A stretch of DNA of 508 bases, taken from Escherichia coli (lineage in GTDB: Bacteria; Pseudomonadota; Gammaproteobacteria; Enterobacterales; Enterobacteriaceae). Made by a program: the position numbers and the translations under genes. The DNA lies in NCBI RefSeq assembly GCF_003334255.1, contig NZ_QOWU01000229.1; one strand, written 5' to 3'. The notes beneath the pieces are model-generated. The model was not told the DNA's origin and did no database searches. It saw nothing but the letters and a program-made list of their open reading frames with translations. Shown here one piece after another: positions 1 to 480 of the stretch; positions within the stretch are counted from its first letter, which is position 1, and each line of letters begins with the position of its first letter.

Positions 1-108
1 TCCACCAGCACTCGAGGATTATGAAATATCTGTATGGATTCACGGCCCGGCTTAAGGACCACCAGCCCAAGCTCAGGCACCAGAACAGGTCTAAGTAATA
101 CCCGCACG

Positions 109-381
109 TTACCTCCAGATCCGTTGCTGGAAAGTGCGGGACGGACGTGGTGGGCGTTCGGAATAAGGCAGCCTGACAGAGATTATCCAGTGCCGATAGT
201 CGAGACTGAGAGCTTTCTTAACCTCGAACCCGCGCCTGCGGTAAGAATGAATCAGCCATTCGGCCTGTTCTTCAGTACATGGTGGGTGTTGGTACCAGTC
301 GGTTTTAAATGCGTGTGAACGCCGCTCATGCCGGATGGCAAGGTCGGTATCAGAATTGTGAAATTTGGTTTTGTGCGCCAT
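109..381 (-). CDS. hypothetical small basic protein (90 aa), family not recognised
   Basis: ATG at 381..379 and TAA at 111..109 on the minus strand. In the minus-strand sense it follows a terminator, promoter-like hexamers and a leader with a weak Shine-Dalgarno-like AGAG 6 nt before the ATG. Second-codon-position composition is gene-like (A about 34%) and the first ~70 residues have a balanced, hydrophilic composition. Against: first codon position is C-rich rather than G-rich, several rare Arg codons (CGG, AGG) and one ATA, and a Pro/Arg-rich C-terminal tail (SERPPRPSRTFQQRIWR) that looks low-complexity. Confidence 0.4.
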   Translation of the reverse strand: MAHKTKFHNSDTDLAIRHERRSHAFKTDWYQHPPCTEEQAEWLIHSYRRRGFEVKKALSLDYRHWIISVRLPYSERPPRPSRTFQQRIWR

Positions 382-390
382 CTGTTTTCT

Positions 391-405
391 CTGCTGGCGC
401 AGCAG
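391..405 (-). promoter_or_regulatory. dyad CTGCTG-GCG-CAGCAG in the leader (possible operator or leader hairpin next to the ribosome-binding region)
   Basis: Plus-strand 391-396 (CTGCTG) is the reverse complement of 400-405 (CAGCAG), with a 3-nt spacer. On the minus transcript this gives 5'-CUGCUG-CGC-CAGCAG-3' immediately 5' of AGAAAACAG-AUG, so the 3' arm abuts the SD-like purines. Confidence 0.3.
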
Positions 406-416
406 GTGTCAGGTGT
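403..416. repeat. perfect tandem heptamer CAGGTGT x2 (ACACCUG-ACACCUG on the minus-strand leader)
   Basis: Plus-strand 403-409 and 410-416 are both CAGGTGT. A third CAGG follows at 418-421, and CAGCAGG precedes at 400-406. It lies in the putative 5' leader, 22-35 nt upstream of the ATG at 381. Confidence 0.6.
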
Positions 417-432
417 TCAGGCTGACGTGCGA

Positions 433-462
433 ATTGTAAACCAGAATGCCAGGAAAAAACAA
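433..462 (-). promoter_or_regulatory. candidate sigma70-type promoter for the 381..109 ORF
   Basis: Minus-strand TACAAT (complement of 433-438, 5/6 match to TATAAT). The best upstream -35 is a weak TTGTTT (complement of 457-462, 18-bp spacer) overlapping the terminator U-run. The alternative TTTACA (complement of 435-440) as a -35 has no convincing -10 at 16-18 bp. No extended -10 TG. Predicted start near 426. Confidence 0.3.
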
Positions 463-480
463 AACCCGCCGAAGCGGGTT
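454..480 (-). terminator. rho-independent (intrinsic) terminator, minus-strand only
   Basis: Minus-strand transcript reads 5'-AACCCGC-UUCG-GCGGGUU-3' followed by UUGUUUUUU. Plus-strand 463-469 pairs with 474-480 (7 bp, 5 G:C), loop 470-473 is a C(UUCG)G tetraloop, U-run is the complement of 454-462. On the plus strand the same stem is followed by AAGUGCGGG, not a U-run, so it is unidirectional. Confidence 0.8.

Follow-up and report, generated by a model that had tools for sequence, protein, structure and literature searches.

A PHROG 1212 gene as the probable first cistron of a lytic-cycle Q operon in the nin region of lambdoid Escherichia coli prophages

Introduction

Is a small, strongly basic open reading frame (ORF) that follows an intrinsic terminator in Escherichia coli DNA a self-contained regulatory gene of accessory DNA, or does it belong to a larger transcription unit that continues downstream? 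The question is raised by a 90-codon ORF, hereafter ORF90, in a 508-nucleotide stretch of contig NZ_QOWU01000229.1 (assembly GCF_003334255.1), which we refer to as the window. An earlier note, made from the letters of the window without database searches, described a stand-alone small nucleic-acid-binding or regulator-type protein of no recognisable family, with its own terminator, promoter and leader. Here, we report a computational analysis of the ORF, its leader, its homologues and the genes that surround them.

Results

ORF90 is a conserved gene of E. coli prophages

The ATG-to-TAA ORF at positions 109..381 of the minus strand and the protein sequence quoted in the earlier note matched the window exactly (Table 1). 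The protein is strongly basic (pI 10.3, net charge +8) and has 13 Arg and 1 Cys, as the note had it, but the count gave 7 His and 4 Trp in place of the 9 and 5 reported there. In RefSeq, the identical protein is found on more than 1000 contigs, under the names hypothetical or 'prophage' protein. Window-related DNA is present in 4,531 of the 5,426 complete E. coli genomes, at up to 10 places per genome, and many E. coli strains, ST131 strains among these, have chromosomal prophage DNA with 100% identity to the window.

Whether the protein-coding frame is that of ORF90 or the overlapping plus-strand frame at 34..318 had been left by the earlier note to comparison of homologous loci. When six alleles of E. 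coli prophage or phage origin were compared, pooled pN/pS in the core of the protein (aa 25-90) was 0.16 in the ORF90 frame, with 34 of the 51 variable sites at codon position 3, against 3.6 for the plus-strand frame. Furthermore, all 157 long-form loci collected from IMG/VR contain an intact ORF of exactly 90 or 92 aa, representing 70 distinct proteins, and protein homologues with 25-49% identity are encoded by phages or prophages of Salmonella (including Gifsy-1 and Gifsy-2), Klebsiella, Yersinia (PY54), Edwardsiella, Erwinia, Cronobacter, Hafnia and others. Conservation in the plus-strand frame, or in no frame, is thus ruled out and, as judged from these comparisons, ORF90 is a genuine conserved protein-coding gene, known in databases but uncharacterised.

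Table 1. Features of the window, with positions and strands numbered on the 508-nucleotide stretch
Feature	Position	Strand	Details
ydfU-like DUF968 gene, 5' end	1..107	-	GTG start 107..105; Orf-like and His-Me/HNH nuclease domains
Antisense shadow ORF, 94 aa	34..318	+	Stop-free; pN/pS 3.6 (six alleles), without protein-level constraint
ORF90 coding sequence	109..381	-	ATG 381..379, TAA 111..109; 90 aa; identical to WP_023141427.1; PHROG 1212 member
ydfU ribosome-binding site GGAGG	112..116	-	Within the last two ORF90 codons, TGG AGG
Conserved 66-residue core, aa 25-90	112..309	-	Spans the whole phrog_1212 profile; pN/pS 0.16 (six alleles)
N-terminal extension, 24 residues	310..381	-	26 residues in 92-aa alleles; Escherichia-type alleles only
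RefSeq 'hypothetical protein' WP_001112736.1, 59 aa	328..507	+	Antisense to ORF90 start, leader and hokD terminator
Leader hairpin 2	391..405	-	CUGCUG, CGC, CAGCAG; abuts weak Shine-Dalgarno GAGA (391..388)
Leader hairpin 1	408..426	-	GUCAG (426..422), loop CCUGAACAC (421..413), CUGAC (412..408)
-10-like hexamer TACAAT	433..438	-	Poor -35 TTGTTT at 18 nt; predicted start about 426-428
Intrinsic terminator of upstream hokD (hok/sok) transcript	453..480	-	Stem 480..463, AACCCGC-TTCG-GCGGGTT; T-run 462..454, TTGTTTTTT

The Qin prophage of K-12 MG1655 carries an intact 92-aa homologue with the same leader, located between ydfU and rem at about NC_000913.3 1644306..1644584 (locus L009 1907..2185, minus strand), a position at which the RefSeq record holds no feature. 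On the opposite strand of the window, RefSeq annotates WP_001112736.1 (Table 1). The K-12 counterpart of this ORF continues into non-homologous rem sequence, so that WP_001112736.1 is probably a spurious gene call.

ORF90 precedes ydfU, rusA and Q in the nin region

The assignment to prophage DNA in the earlier note was borne out. Along the ORF90 strand of NZ_CP023849.1, replication genes and small ORFs are followed by hokD (with sok), the terminator, ORF90, the DUF968 gene ydfU, rusA, Q, tRNAs and lysis genes. By its gene content, the locus is a lambdoid nin region (replication-to-Q), carried by an E. coli prophage of the Qin/mEp460/Tritos type. The intrinsic terminator noted just upstream of ORF90, on the same strand, was also recovered (stem 480..463, T-run 462..454), and it belongs to the hokD transcript.

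At its 3' end, ORF90 is tightly joined to ydfU, the product of which has been described as a fusion of an Orf(NinB)-like domain with an HNH/His-Me finger nuclease (PMC4118853; PMC5714182). A single C separates the two genes, and this junction, TGGAGGTAA-C-GTG, is kept in 154 of the 157 loci. The scan of the window found no terminator between the two genes. Since the ribosome-binding site of ydfU lies within the 3' end of ORF90, translational coupling of the two is possible. The description of ORF90 as a stand-alone gene is contradicted by this junction, in which ORF90 ends 1 nt before the ydfU start, contains the ydfU ribosome-binding site and is followed by no terminator. Read from the DNA, this arrangement shows ORF90 as the first cistron of a block ORF90-ydfU-rusA-Q.

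Upstream of ORF90, the interval between the hokD terminator and the leader (about 440..462 of the window, minus strand) is a hot spot of cassette insertion among prophages. Depending on the prophage, the cargo is rem, a hypothetical gene with ImmA/IrrE, a divergent ParD-like antitoxin gene or other DNA (examples are L002 1888..2420, L010 638..2500, L194 and L159 at about 2240..2500, and L185 at about 1650..1930). Downstream of the hot spot, homology restarts a few bases ahead of the -10 element. A sub-threshold match to the Rfam isrK family (27 bits, versus a gathering score of 50) covered only the 3' end of hokD and the terminator (L001 8459..8540, minus strand; window 459 onwards) and probably reflects mere terminator similarity.

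The protein belongs to PHROG 1212 and has a compact predicted core

The earlier statement that ORF90 has no recognisable family holds for Pfam, in which neither ORF90 (even at E<=10) nor any of the 52 family members had a match, and for NCBIfam; PADLOC likewise returned no match to ORF90. However, it does not hold for PHROGs: in an hmmscan search, residues 25-90 aligned to positions 1-66 of the 66-position phrog_1212 profile (E=4.4e-36, 123.8 bits). PHROG 1212 is a family of phage proteins with the function listed as unknown. A profile search of 1.84 billion representative proteins retrieved only 110 matches, most of which are stand-alone proteins of about 66 aa starting with MK.sWF.H. The matches P0206, P0212 and P0218 were discarded as homologues, being low-complexity helical repeats ("GKLTPEQAKKLL").

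Members of PHROG 1212 are located in the early-right or nin region of temperate phages, upstream of a Q-type antiterminator. They include STM2620.1n of Gifsy-1, a Gifsy-2 protein, gp51 of mEp237, ORF47 of PY54 and 'Orf QD1' of N15, which have cores homologous to that of ORF90, share with it the nin or early-right location upstream of Q in temperate Enterobacterales phages, and are all uncharacterised. Unlike these proteins, ORF90 and its E. coli relatives carry an N-terminal extension of 24-26 residues, have a leader of their own and, because a separate ninB is missing, stand first in the block. NinD, NinE, NinF and NinH of phage lambda resemble ORF90 in being small delayed-early ORFs between the replication genes and Q, beside Orf (NinB) and Rap (NinG), but the lambda nin proteins are unrelated to it: the family profile scored 0.4 bits or less against lambda NinB-NinI and Q, and the Pfam models of NinB, NinE, NinF, NinG and NinH did not match ORF90.

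Searches of PADLOC and NCBIfam yielded no toxin or defence family for ORF90, and literature searches with its coordinates, accession or PHROG identifier found nothing relevant. A homologue is named 'toxin to Rem' in three phage records (ON470612.1, ON470583.1 and ON470619.1); since neither the window nor the majority of loci contain rem, we rejected this name.

AlphaFold2 modelling with 52 homologues placed a strand at residues 26-31, a helix at 37-50 and strands at 54-58 and 65-73, with pLDDT above 95. The predicted core is thus a beta-alpha-beta-beta fold with a single helix. Structural searches returned only the N15 protein "Orf QD1" from BFVD and only uncharacterised family members from AFDB50. 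Accordingly, the family, profile and structure searches gave no characterised relative of ORF90 by fold or by sequence. The single predicted helix, the one Cys and the blank Pfam search leave ORF90 with no helix-turn-helix (HTH), ribbon-helix-helix (RHH) or zinc-finger signature; as for the nucleic-acid binding proposed earlier, it is composition alone that would suggest it.

The N-terminal extension differs from the core in that it is variable (dN/dS 0.24-0.69 among informative pairs), tolerates an in-frame indel of 2 codons and is predicted to be disordered. Over its first 11 nt (ATGGCGCACGA in sister alleles), it agrees with the beginning of ninB in Gifsy-1 and mEp237. The E. coli long-form alleles have no separate ninB beside them, an Orf-like domain being found inside YdfU instead. 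The presence of the ninB leader and first codons at the start of the long form suggests a fusion, and the most likely origin of the extension is a rearrangement in which the 5' end of ninB became attached to the 66-aa gene.

The best conserved linear motif of the protein is its C-terminal tail, LP..PRPSR.[YFW]QQ[RK][IMV]W[RG], modelled with a pLDDT of 78-88, in which all of 49 sequences have the W. The beta sliding clamp is bound through the motif QL[SD]LF or QxxLxF. ORF90 could accordingly be read as a host-directed small protein that docks on a host factor through this tail, the best conserved segment outside the core: host machinery is a common target of small early phage proteins, and the end of the tail, Q-x-x-[I/M/V/L]-W-x-COOH (QQRIWR), bears a resemblance in pattern to the clamp-binding motif. 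However, the first motif position is Q in only 28 of the 49 sequences, the tail has a moderate pLDDT in the monomer model and might just lie against the open face of the sheet, and the TGG-[A/G]GN codons double as the ribosome-binding site of the next gene. Conservation of the terminal W-[R/G] may therefore derive partly from that overlapping ydfU site and not from protein function. Taken together, these observations make a host-directed role unlikely.

A local promoter is predicted to drive the ORF90-ydfU-rusA-Q block

The earlier note expected a transcript starting near position 426. A consensus promoter scan of the window did not call the TACAAT site (Table 1), because its -35 element is poor. 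Comparison of 163 long-form loci showed that TACAAT is kept in all loci of its promoter form, behind three unrelated upstream contexts, namely the hokD terminator, the 3' end of rem, and ImmA/IrrE followed by a terminator. Two other types of locus do not have TACAAT and carry TTGACG-17-CAATAT, beside a divergent ParD-like gene, or TTGAAC-17-AATAAT. These alternative promoter-like elements are found at the same distance of ~7 nt from the same leader hairpin (hairpin 1) as TACAAT. A second hairpin, next to the Shine-Dalgarno sequence, is less conserved than hairpin 1; it shows one compensatory change in K-12 and is absent in loci of the L185 type.

Homology to the ninB leader of Gifsy-1 and mEp237 extends over the entire leader and into the coding sequence, of which it takes in the first 11 nt (ATGGCGCACGA). 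In Gifsy-1, the leader has the structure TTGACT-18-CATAAT-7 nt-hairpin, which places the predicted start 1,606 nt upstream of antQ; the start site of the antQ operon is stated to map about 1,600 nt upstream of antQ (PMC4825925, in a secondary statement). An antirepressor is reported to induce this four-gene operon (Hershko-Shalev et al. 2016, PMC4825925). Its leader is homologous to that of the window in promoter, hairpin, ribosome-binding site and ATGGCGCAC and, like the ORF90 block, the operon contains an ORF90 homologue and ends in a Q-type antiterminator. The two differ in that the Gifsy-1 leader precedes ninB and the nuclease is NinG, whereas in the window the leader precedes ORF90 and the nuclease is YdfU, followed by RusA. 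In lambda, the tR2 terminator is found ahead of ninB instead of a leader of the ORF90 type. The conserved TACAAT, the homology with the Gifsy-1 leader and the reported antQ start site agree with the local promoter of the earlier note, and we infer with good support from these sequence comparisons that such a promoter drives the block, with the start near 426.

The operon is probably part of the lytic programme

Published transcriptomes of the LF82 lysogen bear on the state in which the block would be expressed. The LF82 prophage Tritos encodes a homologue with 88% identity, TRITO_42, which directly follows hokD, a hypothetical gene, ImmA/IrrE and a terminator. In the lysogen, hokD, the hypothetical gene and ImmA/IrrE are expressed 14- to 3,792-fold above local background (PMC9928086). 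Genes at least 5-fold above background do not include the ORF90 homologue, ydfU or Q (PMC9928086), a negative result that is valid if the homologue was in the annotation used. With the upstream genes switched on and the homologue, ydfU and Q unlisted, the data argue against a moron or a regulator expressed in the lysogen. The operon is thus inferred, with good support, to be largely silent in the lysogen and active in lytic development, mainly on induction.

These data also bear on the possibility that ORF90 is a stand-alone 'moron', a regulator or nucleic-acid-binding protein with its own promoter and terminator that is expressed independently of its neighbours. The basic composition, the terminator upstream together with a promoter-like leader, and the cassettes variably inserted just upstream would all suit such a gene. 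However, no terminator follows ORF90, which stops 1 nt before ydfU and carries the ribosome-binding site of that gene; the shorter homologues have no leader of their own and are placed inside ninB-X-ninG operons; the Tritos homologue is not listed among the genes expressed in the lysogen, whereas its upstream neighbours are; and the protein, with its one Cys, has no HTH, RHH or zinc-finger signature. A moron of this kind is therefore quite unlikely.

Our preferred reading is that ORF90, a member of the PHROG 1212 family, probably heads a Q operon of the lytic cycle within a lambdoid nin region. The block ORF90-ydfU-rusA-Q would be transcribed from the local promoter (-10 TACAAT, 438..433) with a start near 426, its RNA would begin with the conserved hairpin with the loop CUGAAC, and the operon would open with ORF90 and end in the late-gene antiterminator Q.

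The leader hairpin is a conserved RNA element

The arms of hairpin 1 were compared across loci aligned at the loop, and subsequently by means of a covariance model. A dozen or more stem sequences surround a nearly invariant loop core, CUGAAC, and across relatives the stem covaries and ranges from 5 to 7 bp. Of the cells in the alignment, 98.8% are paired; each of the 5 pairs varies on both sides, and covariation reaches a score of 0.845, versus 0.247 in shuffles (0 of 500 shuffles reached 0.845), values that were obtained on an alignment fitted to the covariance model, which favours the structure. Moreover, the U-G and G-U intermediates of the stem pair on the sense strand only. For loci in which the leader is followed by ninB or ORF90, the model placed the hairpin upstream of that gene, on its strand, in nearly every case. 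No match to the model was obtained in PY54, phiES15, the Erwinia phage, L254 and L255, each of which has a gene for the protein. As judged from covariation, hairpin 1 is a genuine structured RNA element at the 5' end of the Q operon of many enterobacterial lambdoid prophages. No Rfam family matched the leader and, as far as these tools show, the leader hairpin has been undescribed so far. Hairpin sites were recorded at 408..438 of the window (minus strand), L252 2307..2402 and L004 2340..2410.

Hairpin 1 resembles the boxB/nut hairpins of lambda and the put RNAs of HK022 in being a short, conserved stem-loop close to the promoter of a lambdoid early transcript, with a loop that is kept and a stem that covaries. 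It differs from them in its loop, (C)CUGAAC(AA), which does not make a GNRNA pentaloop in all variants, and no boxA was seen. We regard the likeness as a resemblance only, and an antitermination role finds no support here.

The hairpin might also be the target of the protein encoded behind it, ORF90 being in that case an RNA-binding autoregulator that binds the CUGAAC hairpin and tunes translation or stability of the Q-operon mRNA. Protein and hairpin occur together in both arrangements, leader-ORF90-ydfU-rusA-Q and leader-ninB-X-ninG-Q, and a conserved loop on a variable stem suggests sequence-specific recognition. However, the protein is found in PY54, phiES15, the Erwinia phage, L254 and L255 where the hairpin model is unmatched, and the beta-alpha-beta-beta fold has no recognised RNA-binding relative. 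Autoregulation of this kind, which is purely a matter of deduction, is very unlikely in our estimate.

Homologues are found next to recombination nucleases

We also surveyed the neighbourhood of the homologues that consist of the 66-aa core. In 80 short-form loci from IMG/VR, NinB is encoded upstream in 77, and the downstream gene encodes NinG/Rap in 43, an HNH protein in 10 and RusA in 2. These short homologues have no leader of their own and lie inside ninB-X-ninG operons, as in Gifsy-1, where the order is ninB, the 66-aa homologue, ninG, ylcG and antQ. In mEp237 and phiES15, the 66-aa gene is located between NinB or YbcN and a gene for a 96-aa HNH protein, followed by RusA and Q. Even the distant members L254, L255 and L256 (~30% identity) stand directly upstream of a gene of the NinG/Rap family, one to three genes before Q. 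PY54 and the Erwinia phage are exceptions, with other genes downstream of the homologue. NinG, DUF968 and DUF1364 are all His-Me finger nucleases (PMC5714182).

Two AFDB entries named DUF1364 or YbcO, A0A939NUB8 (177 aa) and A0A2X2YPE4 (166 aa), contain the 66-aa domain (37-45% identity), apparently fused to the downstream HNH nuclease; they would be genuine Rosetta-stone proteins, or else frameshift or annotation artefacts. No domain-nuclease fusion was present in the best 120 clusters; given this rarity, the two entries could be such artefacts.

From the gene neighbourhood, we tentatively propose, at somewhat less than even confidence, that the ORF90 protein is a small basic accessory partner of the adjacent His-Me finger recombination nuclease, which would be YdfU here and NinG/Rap or a YbcO-type HNH protein in relatives. 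As a partner, it could supply DNA binding, targeting or control of the nuclease. The adjacency could also simply be conserved gene order of the nin region.

Discussion

The comparisons reported here turn a presumed stand-alone ORF into what is, on present evidence, an ordinary uncharacterised nin-region gene of a lambdoid prophage. An alternative in which ORF90 is no gene, having arisen by chance, as what is left of a pseudogene or as a shadow cast by the plus-strand ORF 34..318, could point to the missing annotation of the homologous 92-aa ORF in the RefSeq record of K-12 MG1655, but it is refuted by the comparative data, namely purifying selection in the ORF90 frame and not in the antisense frame, an intact ORF in 157 of 157 loci, protein-level homologues across many genera and a confident structure model (core pLDDT above 95).

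The Q-operon reading of ORF90 could be extended on both the protein and the RNA side. On the protein side, PHROG 1212 would be a dedicated partner, translationally coupled to the His-Me finger nucleases YdfU, NinG/Rap and YbcO-type HNH, in a previously unrecognised two-component nuclease; on the RNA side, the CUGAAC hairpin with which the Q-operon RNA would begin would be a new cis-acting element that controls Q and sets the timing of lysis in many enterobacterial prophages. We put forward this joint proposal as a doubtful, albeit possible, extension.

Most E. coli genomes contain ORF90, and many of them have several prophage copies of it; the gene opens the operon that would deliver Q, the switch to late genes and lysis. 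If ORF90 modulates the adjacent nuclease, it would be an added component of the lambdoid recombination toolkit of Orf, Rap and RusA. If the leader hairpin regulates the Q operon, it would represent a new control point of prophage induction, in the Gifsy phages of Salmonella as well.
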